Below are positions 1-5,491 of a DNA stretch of 64,000 nt, piece after piece (the first letter of the stretch is position 1; the number at the start of each line of letters is the position of its first letter). This DNA comes from Escherichia phage Av-05. The stretch is taken from sequence record KM190144; one strand, 5' to 3'. A program made the translations under genes and the position numbers. A model generated the notes under the pieces. It was not told the origin of the DNA. It saw only the letters and a program-made list of their open reading frames with translations, and ran no database searches.

Positions 1-300
1 CATGCAGATCAGACTATATCTTGTGTGTTATTACACACCCCCCTGTTTCGGCGGTTGATAATCAACCGGAGGTTTCCCTCACCGCTTGGCCCTAACGCCC
101 GTAAGCGATAGTCGTTGAACGTTCATCCCATAGGGATGCTTCGCTGCGGATTGTCTAAACATTCACACTGTTACTATACTCAACGTCATTACCGTTGACC
201 ATAAATATGTTACCATACCTACTTAGTGGTGATATGTATAAAGAGTTACCCGTCAATTAAAGGGGTTTATAGAGAGCACACGGTTCTACCCTCATCGAAA
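1..300 (-). mobile_element. Group I self-splicing intron (5' part; continues beyond window start) interrupting the terminase large-subunit gene
   Basis: Minus-strand reading gives the four conserved group I core elements in canonical order P-Q-R-S: P-like AATTGACGGG (plus 249-258), Q-like AATCCGCAGC (143-152), R-like GTTCAACGACTA (109-120), S-like AAGATATAGTC (12-22). Region is non-coding and the terminase ORF stops at 267. Boundaries approximate. Confidence 0.6.
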
Positions 301-1397
301 CCTATAAAGGTATACTGCAAACCCTGATGATCTAATTTGTTATTCTCATACTCCATGTGTCTCCACAACACCTTTGCCCCAGATGGGAAAATTGCTTCCA
401 GAGCTTTCTCCCTGAACTTCGGTTTCCATTCCTTATCAAGTTGCAAATAAATACTTTTCGCTGTATCAAAAAGTCCACCTGCACCTGTCAATTGAGGTGT
501 TGTCCTACGAAACATTATACATGCTGTCTGCGGGTCATCGACATAAGCAAGCGGCATCAATTGTAGGAGATATGATTTTCCACTATTCCCAGTGACAACT
601 ACACAATCTTCTAGTCTGGTAACAAAGAAACCTGTTTGTGTTACAAAGCAGTATTTAAACCCATCCGTAGGTATAAACTCTTTAAACTCAACTTTCTCTT
701 TATCGTTTAATGCTCTTAATGACTCGCCATTAACGTTTACATTAACAATGTACTCTGAGCCAATCTTCTTCAAAGAAGACTCATAATCGAAGCAGGAAAC
801 AACAAACTGGATAAAATCAGCAGTGGATTTGTTACTGGAAGAATACATACCGCCTTGTGCGATAATGGTATCCATGATTACATCAAGTTGATGCCTTGAG
901 CAGTTATAATAGTTCTCTGTTATCTCACCACACAACACTCGCTCTCTGATTGTTTCATCATCTAAGTCCAAACCTGCACCAGAATAATTGAATGTTGTGA
1001 TAAATTTTCCTTCCCAACCACCGCTGGAATTTTTATGTGTCTCCGCAATTTCCGAAAATGGTTGCGTTTTTGGTGGAGTATGGTAATCTTCTTTAAATAG
1101 GACAGTGTGTTCGTCAGATAACTCTTGACAAATACCATTACCTTCTATTCTTGTAAGTTTTTCGCAAGGGAGTTTAACAAACTCTAAAGGAGGGATAAAT
1201 TTAGCCTCCCCTGTGGCTTTATCATATTGCAGAATGTCCTGCCCTGACCATTCTGCTATCTTAATCCAGCCAGATGGTGTCAACACCTCGTGGTCTTTAG
1301 ACAAACACCCGGCGGCCCCGCCAATTATTAGAATTTGGGCTTTACTCTCCAAAATCATTTTTTGTTTAGGACTGGCAGGTCCAAATACTTTACTCAA
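267..1397 (-). CDS. Terminase large subunit, N-terminal ATPase exon, with intein in the Walker A loop; TTG start
   Basis: ORF track; N-terminus MSKVFGPASPKQKMILESKAQILIIGGAAG then, after the insert, SGKSYLL, which reconstitutes the P-loop GAAGSGKS typical of terminase ATPases; FIGFDEG Walker-B-like; GGAGG RBS; C-terminal nuclease domain absent and presumably in a downstream exon beyond the intron. Confidence 0.7.
   Translation of the reverse strand: MSKVFGPASPKQKMILESKAQILIIGGAAGCLSKDHEVLTPSGWIKIAEWSGQDILQYDKATGEAKFIPPLEFVKLPCEKLTRIEGNGICQELSDEHTVLFKEDYHTPPKTQPFSEIAETHKNSSGGWEGKFITTFNYSGAGLDLDDETIRERVLCGEITENYYNCSRHQLDVIMDTIIAQGGMYSSSNKSTADFIQFVVSCFDYESSLKKIGSEYIVNVNVNGESLRALNDKEKVEFKEFIPTDGFKYCFVTQTGFFVTRLEDCVVVTGNSGKSYLLQLMPLAYVDDPQTACIMFRRTTPQLTGAGGLFDTAKSIYLQLDKEWKPKFREKALEAIFPSGAKVLWRHMEYENNKLDHQGLQYTFIGFDEGRTVCSL
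585..1307 (-). mobile_element. Intein (about 241 aa) inserted in terminase P-loop
   Basis: Insert begins Cys-Leu-Ser-Lys-Asp-His-Glu-Val (block A-like CLxxDxxV), ends ...VVVTGN followed by Ser (C-terminal Asn plus nucleophile); flanks rejoin to a perfect Walker A. Penultimate His is absent, so atypical. Confidence 0.55.
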
Positions 1398-1786: not shown

Positions 1787-2184
1787 TTAGACCCCAAACT
1801 GTCGTTATAGATATCAACAAACTGGTTATCGAGGCAAACCTGTTTTCCTGCTTGTGTCTTGCTATAGCTTTTAATCTTTTTGTCAAGATTTTCTTTCAAT
1901 TGATTGTTGATTTCCCTCTCTTGCACTAACATGGTTGACAATTCATCTATCTTATCCTGCTGTTGCTTTTTAAAAGCGTTATTATGATCCCGAACTTGCT
2001 GGTTAATCCTCTCCCATTTAAGATCAGTGTCGCTGACACCTGCGTTGTACGACGATGTTAACTGGTCATTATACCAATGTTTTATCCCCAAGATACCACA
2101 GACGAGAACCACACCACACAAAACAACACCTATCTGTTTTATGTTCTTAGAAAAGAAAGTTAACAGCGTTTTAAACCATATCAT
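1783..2184 (-). CDS. i-spanin (Rz-like, N-terminal TM plus coiled coil)
   Basis: N-terminal hydrophobic segment IGVVLCGVVLVCGILGI, charged helical remainder; ATGA overlap with upstream gene. Confidence 0.6.
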   Translation of the reverse strand: MIWFKTLLTFFSKNIKQIGVVLCGVVLVCGILGIKHWYNDQLTSSYNAGVSDTDLKWERINQQVRDHNNAFKKQQQDKIDELSTMLVQEREINNQLKENLDKKIKSYSKTQAGKQVCLDNQFVDIYNDSLGSK

Positions 2185-3536
2185 GATATATCCCCATCAC
2201 ACTCAATAATGTTTTCAATTTTCAGTGTTGTTTTTCTGTTTTCAGAAATATTAATCTTATCAGTTATGATATCGTATTGCATCTCAGATGGATTACTTAT
2301 TGAGACATCTAAGAGAACTGCGCCAGGTTTATACGTTTCATATCCATAACCATCTGTCTTACCCTCCTTGCACAGGTATTCGTAATATTCTCTTGCCTTC
2401 TTCTCATCAACATAAAGGCTGAGAGTGCGAAAATTATTTGCTATATCTTCTTTGTAAAGCCCAACATAATGTGTATCTTTTGTTGGCATCATGAGATAGA
2501 AAACTTCAGCAGGACAAACTCCATATAGTTTTGTAAAGTATTTCCTGCCTGTTGCTTTTCTTAATCTTTGAAAGATATTAAACATATTAATTTTAGATAC
2601 ATCATTAAACGGCAACGGTTGCACAGGGGTAACATTTTTGTCTACCTGCTGGCAACAAGATTCTAATCTGTCCAGGCACTCAACCAAAGAATCAAGTGAA
2701 AACTGTTTTGTCTCATCAAAGATATCAGACAGTTTCATTCCGTACATCCCGCTAAGATGTGACTTTGCCGATTCCCAACTTTCTATCTGAAGGCTAGCAA
2801 TGGTCATGGACAGTTTCATTGTCTCTTTTTTCGAAATTGTATAGCCACGAGATTTGTATTTTTCAGATCTCAAAAGTGACATAATCGGGTATTCAGTCTT
2901 ATGATTTACAACTAAGACCCTTTGAGCGATATGTTTTAAGAAGTTGCTATCAAATTCCCACACACCATCTTTGAAGTTAAAAGCACCCATATTTATTGTA
3001 AAATCAAATTTGCTAAAGATATCTTCTGTTGTTTTGAACACATCCATAGCCACACATTGAAAGACAGGCTCTTGTCCAAAGTAAAACATCACACTCTTAT
3101 CTGTCACACCAACCTTTTTGGTTGGTAAATTATCATCTTCATCACCTAAATAATCGCATTCATTGTCATATTTTCTACCTCTAGAAAGAGGATCTGTAAA
3201 ATTTGAAAATGAGGTGTCGCCGTGATCAAGTTTATAGAAATTCCTAAATGCTATTTTTTGTTCTGAGGCCCAGCCATTTGTTTTCTCAGACAAATCATAC
3301 TTTCCTGACAAGAGTCTTTTATCCATCATGTACGCAATGAATATCTCAAGATTTTCCCAAGATGGGAAATACAAATCAAGATCGTTGACTTTACTATTAG
3401 AGAACAAAGAGGTTATTGCCCCGCCAGCTATCTTAACATTCAGCTTTGACAATAAATCATAAACACCTTTTGGTATAAAAGAGCGCAAAATGTCATACTC
3501 TCTTTGAAAATCTTCTTTTTTGAAAACATGCAACAT
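2181..3536 (-). CDS. Hypothetical 452-aa protein with nucleotidyltransferase-fold-like motif, co-transcribed with spanins
   Basis: Start at internal ATG 3536 with GGAGAG RBS; motif KIAGGAITSLFSNSKVNDLDLYF fits hG[GS]x(9-13)DhDh of Pol-beta superfamily; no lysozyme motif recognised. Confidence 0.5.
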   Translation of the reverse strand: MLHVFKKEDFQREYDILRSFIPKGVYDLLSKLNVKIAGGAITSLFSNSKVNDLDLYFPSWENLEIFIAYMMDKRLLSGKYDLSEKTNGWASEQKIAFRNFYKLDHGDTSFSNFTDPLSRGRKYDNECDYLGDEDDNLPTKKVGVTDKSVMFYFGQEPVFQCVAMDVFKTTEDIFSKFDFTINMGAFNFKDGVWEFDSNFLKHIAQRVLVVNHKTEYPIMSLLRSEKYKSRGYTISKKETMKLSMTIASLQIESWESAKSHLSGMYGMKLSDIFDETKQFSLDSLVECLDRLESCCQQVDKNVTPVQPLPFNDVSKINMFNIFQRLRKATGRKYFTKLYGVCPAEVFYLMMPTKDTHYVGLYKEDIANNFRTLSLYVDEKKAREYYEYLCKEGKTDGYGYETYKPGAVLLDVSISNPSEMQYDIITDKINISENRKTTLKIENIIECDGDIS

Positions 3537-3582
3537 CTTAACTCTCCTTGAGTACAAAACAAGATGCGTAAAGACTAGCACA

Positions 3583-4067: not shown

Positions 4068-4143
4068 TGGTGTGACGGACAGGATTCGAACCTGTGACCA
4101 CCTAGTCTTCAGCAAGGCACTCTACCAACTGAGTTACCGTCAC
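4068..4143 (-). tRNA. tRNA-Phe (GAA), CCA encoded
   Basis: Acceptor GTGACGG/CCGTCAC, D-arm ACTC..GAGT, anticodon loop CTGAAGA, T-loop TTCGAAT. Confidence 0.8.
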
Positions 4144-4148
4144 ATGAT

Positions 4149-4225
4149 TGGTAGGCGATGAGGGACTCGAACCCCCAAAATTCAGGTTCTAAGCCTGACA
4201 TGTATACCAATTCCATCAATCGCCC
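4149..4225 (-). tRNA. tRNA with anticodon UAG (Leu codon family) but class I (short variable loop) architecture
   Basis: Acceptor GGGCGAT/ATCGCCT, anticodon stem TCAGG/CCTGA, loop CTTAGAA, 5-nt variable loop, T-loop TTCGAGT, discriminator A, CCA encoded. Confidence 0.6.
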
Positions 4226-4239
4226 ATCTATATTAACAG

Positions 4240-4431
4240 TTACGGTTTTCCGCGATACACAGAAATAGTTTTTCCATTGGCATTGATCACGTAGGCGGTC
4301 TGATCCTCAGACAAAAATACTTTTTGATCAACGCCGGAAATAGCTATAGACTTTTGATGAGCGCAATACCCAACAATTTTGCCACAAAAAATTTGTTCAT
4401 CATTTGGGGAGACTACTTTAACTGTTAACAT
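4240..4431 (-). CDS. Small hypothetical protein (about 64 aa)
   Basis: ORF track trimmed to internal ATG preceded by GAGGA; upstream part of track ORF overlaps tRNA-Pro. Confidence 0.3.
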   Translation of the reverse strand: MLTVKVVSPNDEQIFCGKIVGYCAHQKSIAISGVDQKVFLSEDQTAYVINANGKTISVYRGKP

Positions 4432-4473
4432 GGTATCCTCTGTACATTTCTGTTTTGATATGTATATGTTTGT

Positions 4474-4551
4474 TGGTCTGTCCGGTTGGATTTGAACCAA
4501 CGACCTGATCATCCCAAGTGACCCGCGCTACCCAAGCTGCGCTACGGACAG
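4474..4551 (-). tRNA. tRNA-Pro (UGG), CCA encoded
   Basis: Acceptor CTGTCCG/CGGACAG, D-stem GCGC, anticodon loop CTTGGGA, T-loop TTCAAAT. Confidence 0.8.
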
Positions 4552-4635
4552 AGAGATGTAGATTTTAATTGTCCCAGAATCTACAAACTGGTATCGCTGG
4601 CTAGGTGATATCTGTGACTTGATTAAGTCAAGAAT

Positions 4636-4726
4636 TGGCGGTTCCTGAAGGATTCGAACCTTCGGTGGGGAGATTCCTCCCAACGGCTTAACAGGCCGTC
4701 ACCATCGACCACTCGGTCAAAGAACC
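4636..4726 (-). tRNA. Class II (long variable arm) tRNA with anticodon GUU (Asn codons); identity ambiguous
   Basis: Acceptor GGTTCTT/AGGAACC, Ser-like D-arm ACC-GAGTGGTCGAT-GGT, anticodon stem ACGGC/GCCGT with loop CTGTTAA, 19-nt variable arm TGGGAGGAATCTCCCCACC, T-loop TTCGAAT, discriminator G, CCA encoded. Confidence 0.55.
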
Positions 4727-4735
4727 AGAATATTT

Positions 4736-4812
4736 TGGTGGATCTGGTTAGATTCGAACTAACAATCCCTCGATTAAAAGTCAAGTGCCTTAAACCATTT
4801 GGCTACAGATCC
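4736..4812 (-). tRNA. tRNA-Lys (UUU), CCA encoded
   Basis: Acceptor GGATCTG/CAGATCC, anticodon loop CTTTTAA, T-loop TTCGAAT. Confidence 0.8.
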
Positions 4813-5034
4813 TTTAAATTATCTTTAAAATAGCTAATTACTCGCACATAATTAGCTATACGCAACAGCCCTCTAGGGAGGGCACACTAATGATAGATTA
4901 CGATTACATGACCATCATGAGTGTTTGACTTACGCCAGTAAAGAGCGGACTGCTCTGGGGTATCGGTAAGATGGTTGCAGCCATCCACCGAAAAATCACA
5001 CCAAGCAACTAAACAAGCTACATTAAAGATAACT

Positions 5035-5123
5035 TGGAGGAGGCTGACAGAATCGAACTGTCACCATATCTCTACAGCGGGACTGGGTTCAAACCAGCTT
5101 GTGCACCATGCACCCCAGCCTCC
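5035..5123 (-). tRNA. tRNA-Ser (UGA), class II, CCA encoded
   Basis: Acceptor GGAGGCT/AGCCTCC, anticodon stem GCTGG/CCAGT loop TTTGAAC, long variable arm, T-loop TTCGATT. Confidence 0.65.
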
Positions 5124-5201
5124 AAAAATAGCCTCTGCCGAGAAGATACACCCAACAAAGACGGCGCTCAGGTCCGAAGAAATCTGAGCCTTGACATACA
5201 G

Positions 5202-5295
5202 TGGAGGAAGATGCCAGACTTGAACTGGCACACCCATTTCTGGGTTACTATCTCCTTAGCAGGGAGACCCCTTACCAAATTAGGGTTAATCTTCC
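5202..5295 (-). tRNA. tRNA-Ser (GCU), class II, CCA encoded
   Basis: Acceptor GGAAGAT/ATCTTCC, anticodon stem TCTCC/GGAGA loop CTGCTAA, long variable arm, T-loop TTCAAGT. Confidence 0.7.
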
Positions 5296-5316
5296 AATAC
5301 CTTAGTAATTAAAAAC

Positions 5317-5406
5317 TGGTGGAGAAGGAGAGAATCGAACTCTCAAGCCGTTTTACCAGTCAGCACATTTCCAATGTGGTTTCGTCGCCAATCGATTTGC
5401 TTCTCC
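5317..5406 (-). tRNA. tRNA-Ser (GGA) candidate, class II, CCA encoded
   Basis: Acceptor GGAGAAG/CTTCTCC, T-arm GAGAG-TTCGATT-CTCTC, anticodon loop TTGGAAA with one mismatch in stem; D-arm irregular. Confidence 0.5.
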
Positions 5407-5415
5407 GTTTTAACT

Positions 5416-5491
5416 TGGCAGGGGATGGTTGATTCGAACAACCGATCACGGGGTCAAAGCCCGTTGCATTAGGCCACTATGCTAATCCCCT
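5416..5491 (-). tRNA. tRNA-Gln (UUG), CCA encoded
   Basis: Acceptor AGGGGAT/ATCCCCT, D-stem GCAT/ATGC, anticodon stem ACGGG/CCCGT loop CTTTGAC, T-loop TTCGAAT. Confidence 0.8.

Follow-up and report, generated by a model that had tools for sequence, protein, structure and literature searches.

P-loops are a classic site of intein insertion (PMC5050341, PMC2807308), and terminases are the commonest intein hosts of actinophages, at ~40% (Kelley et al., PMC5050341); a 2025 survey of actinophage inteins placed 293 of 784 in terminases and listed nine cases with a degraded endonuclease. The P-loop inteins of the mycobacteriophage large terminase subunit (TerL) that were assayed by Kelley et al., TerL1-b among them, spliced efficiently (PMC5050341), and class 3 inteins are concentrated in the P-loops of helicases and terminases (PMC2807308). 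The element described here is real but of this familiar and well-documented kind, namely a contiguous intein with a decayed LAGLIDADG module, located in the Walker A motif of the terminase of an rV5-like coliphage, Escherichia phage Av-05 (KM190144), in a gene that also contains a group I intron at Walker B. Both the intein and the first exon of TerL are encoded on the minus strand of the 64,000 nucleotide (nt) stretch that we analyzed and that we call the window. The insert is very probably an intein of a large, phage-borne family with insertions mostly in P-loops, and it is translated in frame within the TerL precursor and removes itself from it.

The TerL open reading frame (ORF) extends over positions 267..1397 on the minus strand in the ORF list, with an uncertain start codon that is either the TTG at 1395-1397 or the ATG of Met14 at 1356-1358. 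Its translation consists of MSKVFGPASPKQKMILESKAQILIIGGAAG, the insert CLSKDHEV...LEDCVVVTGN and SGKSYLLQLMPL. An earlier note on this DNA had described a Cys-initiated insert of about 241 amino acids (aa) ending in Asn between IIGGAAG and SGKSYLL. A script run on the translation placed the insert at exactly 241 codons and exactly at 585..1307, and the earlier description was thus exact, save for the strand (minus), which had been left unstated. The junctions read ...QILIIGGAAG / CLSKDHEV...CVVVTGN / SGKSYLLQ..., and deletion of the insert in silico yielded GGAAGSGKS, which restores the P-loop in frame and contains the GAAGSGKS that had been predicted. The boundary residues Cys1, Asn241 and Ser+1 all fit the intein boundary rule (Cys/Ser, Asn and Cys/Ser/Thr, respectively), and insert boundaries of this exactness together with the restored P-loop are far beyond chance. 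The spliced 135-aa extein matched phrog_9526 (terminase large subunit) at 1e-73, and its alignment with Pfam Terminase_6N, at 8e-9, begins at profile position 1.

The insert is absent from related terminases. When we searched 50,697 phage records by tblastn with a 129-aa version of the spliced extein, 1,154 of them gave matches, and in 935 a single place covered at least 80% of the query. The best intein-free relative was found in Enterobacter phage FENT2 (Vequintavirinae), whose TerL of 499 aa is 81% identical, reads ...ILIIGGAAGSGKSYLLQLMPL... without intein or intron and is continuous at the P-loop site (IIGGAAGSGKSYLL); an intein-less site of the FENT2 type agrees with the window flanks at 43/60 nt. 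The insert is therefore not a native domain of homologous terminases, and the alignment of its flanks to intein-free terminases, which had been proposed as a check, bore the earlier note out. Other homologues differ around the same site. In Rheinheimera phage Barba6A (L003:2420-2900; 112 similar records), the TerL homology begins only at ...AAGSGKSYLL, an in-frame stop lies before it and the annotated TerL coding sequence has its start downstream of the P-loop. Another locus may encode the N-terminal 27 residues together with the first Walker A Gly (as a fractured gene, a split intein or with an intron), or the start may have been mis-called. Phapecoctavirus-type TerL genes of Escherichia and Shigella phages (for example NC_052659 nieznany, 139952-140170, and KX552041 ESCO13) match only the first 71 aa of the intein at 42% identity, and in ESCO13 and 536P1 the extein match begins only at residue 47, which hints at an unannotated insert of another kind in this P-loop or close to it.

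Structure and profile methods were decisive in assigning the Hint fold to the insert. A phmmer search of the PDB sequences with the single insert sequence reached only the solved AceL NrdHF intein (PDB 6zgq), at an E-value of 0.85; a profile of four sequences improved this match to 0.0047 and the profile of 16 family sequences to 1.9e-10. The AlphaFold model of the insert, computed with the 16-sequence family alignment, had a mean predicted local distance difference test (pLDDT) score of 96.0 and a predicted template modelling (pTM) score of 0.90. Its structural matches were led by the same 6zgq (score 18.5, 144 of 154 residues, 2.2 A), followed by the endonuclease-bearing TliVMA intein (17.2, 219 residues) and PI-PkoII (16.9, 222 residues) and by the Hedgehog C-terminal domain (14.9, 135 residues). 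Isolated LAGLIDADG domains formed the next tier (WhiA N-domain, 6.4; I-Tsp061I, 6.0; I-DmoI, 5.2), with 76-80 residues aligned. The modelled Hint fold, the profile match to 6zgq and the extein match to phrog_9526 support the earlier claim of an intein in a terminase P-loop.

The family became visible only in an exhaustive profile search over 1.84 billion representative proteins, which returned 1,470 relatives at E<=1e-3 and 723 at E<=1e-10; a word-indexed homologue search had found only four. The relatives are located at varied positions in proteins of varied length and usually match as two stretches with extra sequence between them. Pfam readings of ten host proteins identified terminases, UvrD/RecD-like, PIF1-like and ResIII/DEAD helicases, clamp-loader-like AAA+, SbcC/Rad50-like and Toprim-DnaB proteins, and in each of the ten the host domain picks up again just past Walker A; according to the annotations of phage records, RtcB ligases are hosts as well. 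Most carriers among the relatives examined are phage proteins. From the best 150 relatives, we extracted 145 complete elements, with a filter that left out two proteins, P0130 and P0087, beginning with Pro1 and Gly1, respectively. The median element length was 317 aa (n=145), which places the 241 aa of the window intein in the lowest 5%. The -1 residue was Gly in 129 of the 145 elements, the +1 residue Ser in 72, Cys in 55 and Thr in 18, and [SCT]GK[ST] followed directly in 102, so that the family inserts preferentially after residue 4 of GxxxxGK[S/T] and before residue 5. Insertions recur at other sites as well, among them VDIG|CGM, which belongs to RtcB in sequenced Bacillus phages. A relative is present in 249 sequenced phage records and, among the matches listed, is named by its host protein only or unannotated. 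Full-length members occur in Bacillus phages (KJ676859, KJ081346, OL964058), Pseudomonas KIL phages (KU130126-31) and Enterocloster phages (OP172753-57); they occupy RtcB ligase, primase/helicase and RecD-like genes and, among the matches listed, are named by the host protein or as hypothetical. Searching the window with the family profile, we found no second family copy.

These results bear on an explanation without removal at the protein level, in which the insert would either stay in mature TerL as a native domain or leave the mRNA by RNA splicing, as an intron with an in-frame ORF. An RNA intron is indeed located 300 nt downstream in the same gene, and phage introns can carry ORFs. However, the insert separates residues 4 and 5 of GxxxxGK[S/T], which should be incompatible with a working P-loop, it has a Hint fold with Cys1, Asn and Ser+1 placed precisely at the junctions, unrelated nucleoside triphosphatases contain the same element at equivalent sites, and no Rfam family matched 585-1307 at E<=0.1. 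We consider this explanation extremely improbable.

The splicing residues of the window intein were compared with the alignment of 147 family elements. Cys1 (position A:1), His67 (B:10), Cys220 (F:4), Arg231 (late block F) and Asn241 (G:7) are each identical in 147/147, Gly240 (G:6) is Gly in 143/147 and Thr239 (G:5) corresponds to Thr in 134 and Ser in 13 elements, while Ser64 (B:7) corresponds to Ser in 120, Cys in 14 and Thr in 13, and Val69 (B:12) to V/I/F/L/M but never to Trp. The window intein hence holds every family-invariant splicing residue. Its block B TxxH motif takes the form S64-D-E-H67, and Ser at B:7 is the family norm that is also found in AceL NrdHF. The penultimate His (G:6), which is common but not obligatory in inteins, is replaced by Gly240, as the earlier note had observed; because Gly occupies G:6 in 143 of the 147 elements, this is a family trait and not a defect. 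Phage inteins often have Gly, Lys or Ser in place of the penultimate His (Kelley et al. 2016, PMC5050341), complete splicing has been observed for a phage intein with a penultimate Gly (PMC5050341), and in AceL NrdHF, which ends in Thr144-Gly145-Asn146|Ser, a His put in at this position abolished activity (PMC7891396).

Full-length relatives contain two clear LAGLIDADG motifs, LRLxVAVxADG and QLxIIxDExxxWDG, both of which are present in the 329-aa allele of Escherichia phage 18-1-2 (LQVAVMADG and ILDEIFHWDG). The window copy covers positions 1-128 and 189-312 of the family profile and skips the 60 positions 129-188, which contain motif 1 and its half-domain, and its motif 2 reads VIMDTIIAQGG in place of the family's IIxDExxxWDG, with loss of the acidic residue. 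In agreement with the earlier note, the 241-aa insert has no LAGLIDADG motif pair. The absence of motif 1 and the lost acidic residue of motif 2 mean that the window copy should be unable to cut DNA and that the endonuclease module should be dead, and the element would therefore not home on its own. About 105 residues are left in the center, and the structure model shows them with confidence as a domain of helices and sheet. Of the two possibilities that had been suggested for the element, a degenerate intein or a mini-intein, the former holds and the latter does not, as mini-inteins consist of the splicing domain only (about 130-160 aa) and the window intein has 241 aa with a structured center; a true mini form of 152 aa occurs at the same site in the relative P0004. 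Endonucleases encoded in another frame or antisense inside some actinophage inteins have been described in the literature, but this arrangement was rejected for the window intein: the ORFs in other frames that overlap 585-1307 are only 58-71 aa long according to the ORF list, to which no domain scan was applied.

The history of the element was read from a comparison with phage 18-1-2 (Avunavirus), which is ~91% identical to the window over this region, with the N-extein 88/90 identical. Within the intein, nt 1-200 and nt 611-723 are 97.0% and 97.3% identical, respectively, whereas nt 201-610 are only 60.0% identical and include eight indel tracts, with a net shortfall of about 264 nt in the window. 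We rejected an origin by simple, recent deletion from the 18-1-2 allele, given the contrast between this center and the 97% identical ends and the ~240-aa architecture, which the window intein has in common with P0002 (240 aa) at only 47% identity. Because the architecture is shared at this distance, the lineage of the short form is old, and its near-identical ends indicate that phages recombined recently rather than that a fresh deletion took place. The 241-aa form recurs in the independent metagenome contig L006 at 97.6% nt identity, and its protein cluster has 64 member sequences.

The splicing parts are under purifying selection. In comparison with P0001, the ratio of non-synonymous to synonymous substitution rates (dN/dS) was 0.12 in the N-terminal splicing part and 0.25 in the center (5 synonymous and 5 non-synonymous changes); across the splicing parts it ranged from 0.12 to 0.28, and no non-synonymous change was seen in the exteins when close relatives were compared. 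For P0002, the non-synonymous difference was 0.51 in the center, compared with 0.27 and 0.19 in the splicing parts; synonymous sites are saturated against distant relatives, for which the non-synonymous proportion (pN) alone is given. The remnant appears less constrained but not random, which would fit a part that needs to fold so that splicing can proceed.

Several observations weigh against a self-removing intein initiated by Cys1. Pfam and NCBIfam scans of the insert and of the whole ORF gave no intein, Hint or LAGLIDADG match, and the insert had no match at E<=10 in Pfam and none to the intein models at E<=1 in NCBIfam. Splicing itself and the initiating role of Cys1 are predicted activities. 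AceL NrdHF, the closest characterized relative, is a proven class 3 intein with the block F Cys as first nucleophile, and it shares with the window intein the Ser at B:7, the Thr-Gly-Asn terminus and the lack of His at F:13 and G:6. Two exceptions to Cys1 occur among about 150 elements, P0130 with Pro1 and P0087 with Gly1. Finally, the part of TerL beyond exon 1 lies outside the window, and the integrity of the gene can be judged here for that exon only. The first of these points is a sensitivity limit of the curated models and not evidence against the Hint fold; only 2 of 16 intein-family members match Pfam Intein_splicing. The search of Hint and intein profiles that had been proposed earlier was thus negative with the curated Pfam and NCBIfam models, and the family profile matched the solved intein 6zgq.

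The clearly degenerate endonuclease domain and the presence of only TerL exon 1 in the window would also be compatible with a dead intein that no longer splices and leaves this TerL copy non-functional, in a defective phage or in the assembly of a non-viable variant. Packaging requires TerL, however, and the window copy retains each splicing residue that is invariant in the family, purifying selection acts on its splicing domains and exteins, a 97.6% identical form exists in another sample, with 64 sequences in its cluster, and a form of the same architecture persists at 47% identity in P0002. A dead intein is accordingly very unlikely, and the window intein probably still splices.

In the proposed mechanism, the intein would part GGAAG from SGKS and leave an ATPase that is unable to bind ATP until removal yields GAAGSGKS. 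Cys1 would form a thioester, Ser+1 would take over the N-extein, Asn241 would cyclize and free the intein without a penultimate His, possibly with help from other residues such as the invariant Arg231, and an O-N shift would then create the peptide bond that links the exteins. The element would be maintained through vertical inheritance and through recombination when phages infect together.

With Cys1 as an N-terminal nucleophile (Cys/Ser/Thr), the window intein is assigned to class 1 by the standard definition. It is not class 3 by the operational definition, which combines the lack of Cys at the N-end with Cys at F:4 (PMC7891396). The triplet Trp-Cys-Thr (WCT) of class 3 corresponds to Val69, Cys220 and Thr239, that is, two of three positions, compared with Met-Cys-Thr in AceL NrdHF. 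Provided that the intein splices, the class 1 pathway appears the most likely one, mainly because Cys1 is strictly conserved in a very diverse family. Less probable, but worth consideration, is a class 3 or hybrid route, in which Cys220, activated by His67 and Thr239, would attack the N-terminal junction to give a block F branched thioester and then pass the N-extein to Ser+1, with Cys1 chemically dispensable or in a redox or structural role. This route is suggested by AceL NrdHF, the nearest solved and biochemically characterized relative, with its MCT triplet and T-G-N|S terminus, by the Cys F:4, His B:10 and Thr(Ser) G:5 triad that is conserved in 100% of the 147 members, by the otherwise intact P0130, by the N-terminal Ser or Cys of 3 out of 37 WCT inteins (Tori et al., PMC2807308) and by the clustering of class 3 inteins in helicase and terminase P-loops (PMC2807308). 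On the other hand, Cys1 in 147/147 extracted members, with two exceptions per about 150, would be unexpected if residue 1 were dispensable, the Trp at B:12 never occurs in the family, and Cys, the second commonest F:4 residue, is widespread among inteins generally (PMC4031507).

P0130 (residues 115-429 of a metagenome protein) is an intact member of 314 aa in the P-loop of an SNF2-like helicase, with both LAGLIDADG motifs; it reads ...YCFSVP...ISGN|TGKS, and its relatives at the same site begin with Cys. P0087 ends with ...KGN at the end of its protein. In both, a natural switch to splicing of the class 3 type may have taken place inside the family. As Cys1 and the class 3 Cys-His-Thr triad are both strictly conserved, AceL NrdHF (Ala1) is class 3 and Pro1 or Gly1 occurs rarely, one might go further and see the family as one that naturally connects class 1 with class 3 inteins, which we regard as doubtful. 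If both Cys residues act, in a Cys1->Cys220->Ser+1 acyl relay or as a Cys1-Cys220 redox switch on terminase maturation, class 3 would have arisen divergently from class 1; such a divergent origin in phage P-loop inteins would bear on the debate over divergent versus convergent origins (PMC7664689).

The earlier note had also placed a group I intron in the same gene, which was supported by an RF00028 match on the minus strand from 339 to 1 (49.4 bits against a gathering threshold of 50; E 1.4e-10), with its 3′ end cut by the window edge and the conserved P3-P7 core within 269..1, and by homologous introns of 70-80% identity at the Walker B site in the contigs L006 and L004. The intron start at 339 given by Rfam was rejected, as the P1/P2 alignment there overlaps coding sequence that is collinear with the intron-free FENT2; the 5′ splice site probably follows GAT GAG GGT at ~288, directly after FDEG, with an accuracy of about 2 nt. 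Phage 18-1-2 and L006 contain a further intron without an ORF, located after ...HQG and 33 nt upstream, that is absent from the window, and in L004 the Walker B intron carries an Endonuclease_7 ORF and a second intron an HNH ORF. The two TerL intron sites 33 nt apart are thus differently combined (window 1-339; L001:2757-3000; L006:1873-2117), with only the Walker B intron in the window, the HQG intron and a later HNH intron in 18-1-2, and the HQG and Walker B introns in L006. Reverse transcription PCR has shown splicing of an HNH intron in the TerL gene of the related Certrevirus CB7, for which no TerL intein was reported (PMC7344957). The coordinates of the intein, its surroundings and the intron are compiled in Table 1.

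Table 1 Features of the TerL locus in the window.
Feature	Position	Strand	Basis
Group I intron, 5′ part, interrupting TerL directly after Walker B; extends past the window edge	1..287	-	RF00028
Walker B region FIGFDEG, end of exon 1	288..308	-	FENT2 and 18-1-2 exon comparison
TerL exon 1: N-extein, intein and C-extein up to Walker B (FDEG)	288..1397	-	ORF list, Terminase_6N and phrog_9526, FENT2 collinearity
Walker A, second half (S-G-K-S)	573..584	-	translation
Ser+1, C-extein nucleophile (predicted)	582-584	-	
Intein, 241 aa, Cys1 to Asn241	585..1307	-	translation, profile, structure model
C-terminal splicing domain, intein aa 206-241	585..692	-	family conservation
Block G, Thr239-Gly240-Asn241	585-593	-	
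Block F, Tyr219-Cys220 and invariant Arg231	648-650 (Cys220); 615-617 (Arg231)	-	
Degenerate LAGLIDADG endonuclease remnant, intein aa 101-205	693..1007	-	
N-terminal splicing domain, intein aa 1-100	1008..1307	-	family alignment; 6zgq profile match, E 1.9e-10
Block B, Ser64-x-x-His67, with Val69 as B:12	1107-1118 (Ser64-His67)	-	family alignment
Block A, Cys1	1305-1307	-	
Walker A, first half (G-G-A-A-G), end of N-extein	1308..1322	-	translation

Upstream of TerL on the minus strand, two overlapping small ORFs (1493-2184) follow directly, one with a lipoprotein-like signal (MKKYVIMVPFLLFMLTGC) and the other with an N-terminal hydrophobic segment, which match the position of FENT2 genes annotated as Rz-like spanins. 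Upstream of these spanin-like genes, also on the minus strand, an ORF of 452 aa (2181-3539) is 38% identical (E 1e-92) to a syntenic L004 gene with the precomputed Pfam label 'Gad2' (PF26128); Pfam and PADLOC scans of the 452-aa protein gave no match, and its N-terminal GG...DLDxYF motif is one that we take to recall nucleotidyltransferases. Nine tRNA genes (Phe, Leu, Pro, Asn, Lys, three Ser and Gln) are located at 4068-5491 on the minus strand, among which the tRNA-Asn(GTT) call at 4636-4726 is, at 91 nt, unusually long for its isotype.

The intein models of Pfam and NCBIfam do not see the family, so that a large group of inteins systematically escapes notice in phage genomes. The combination of a class 1 Cys with class 3-like block F and G residues in a phage of E. 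coli offers a tractable system for studying the initiating Cys and the origin of class 3. A single TerL site, in this gene and its relatives, presents full-length (329 aa), degenerate (241 aa) and mini (152 aa) inteins, and this series, together with the introns assorted over two sites, gives a compact picture of the homing-decay cycle and of phage recombination.

Among the known systems, AceL NrdHF-1-1 (PDB 6zgq; Hoffmann et al. 2020, PMC7891396) has Ala1, Cys124 at F:4 as branch nucleophile and an 'MCT' triplet. It is a 146-aa intein without endonuclease domain in a ribonucleotide reductase gene, not in a P-loop, and it occurs naturally in two halves that are separated by a free-standing GIY-YIG gene, whereas the window intein is contiguous, starts with Cys1 and retains a LAGLIDADG remnant. 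The canonical class 3 (WCT) inteins, such as MP-Be DnaB and Msm/Mch DnaB-1, resemble the window intein in their association with phages, their location mostly in helicase or terminase P-loops, Cys at F:4 and Thr at G:5, but lack an N-terminal nucleophile and have Trp at B:12, where the window intein has Cys1 and Val. The mycobacteriophage inteins TerL1-a and TerL1-b (Kelley et al. 2016, PMC5050341) likewise occupy Walker A of a phage large terminase; their terminase is of the Terminase_1 type from another host clade and the window TerL is a T4-like Terminase_6, and the TerL1-a site is GK|T, between Lys and Thr, while the window site, G|SGKS, lies three residues earlier and is the standard site of its own family. 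Close counterparts are found in Escherichia phages 18-1-2, 19-1-2, 24-2-1 and TH18 (Avunavirus, Vequintavirinae), with the same gene, the same insertion site and near-identical exteins. Their 18-1-2-type allele, which is labelled only 'terminase large subunit' in GenBank, has 329 aa and both LAGLIDADG motifs, in contrast to the 241 aa of the window intein without them, and the central ~400 nt of the two are 60% identical.

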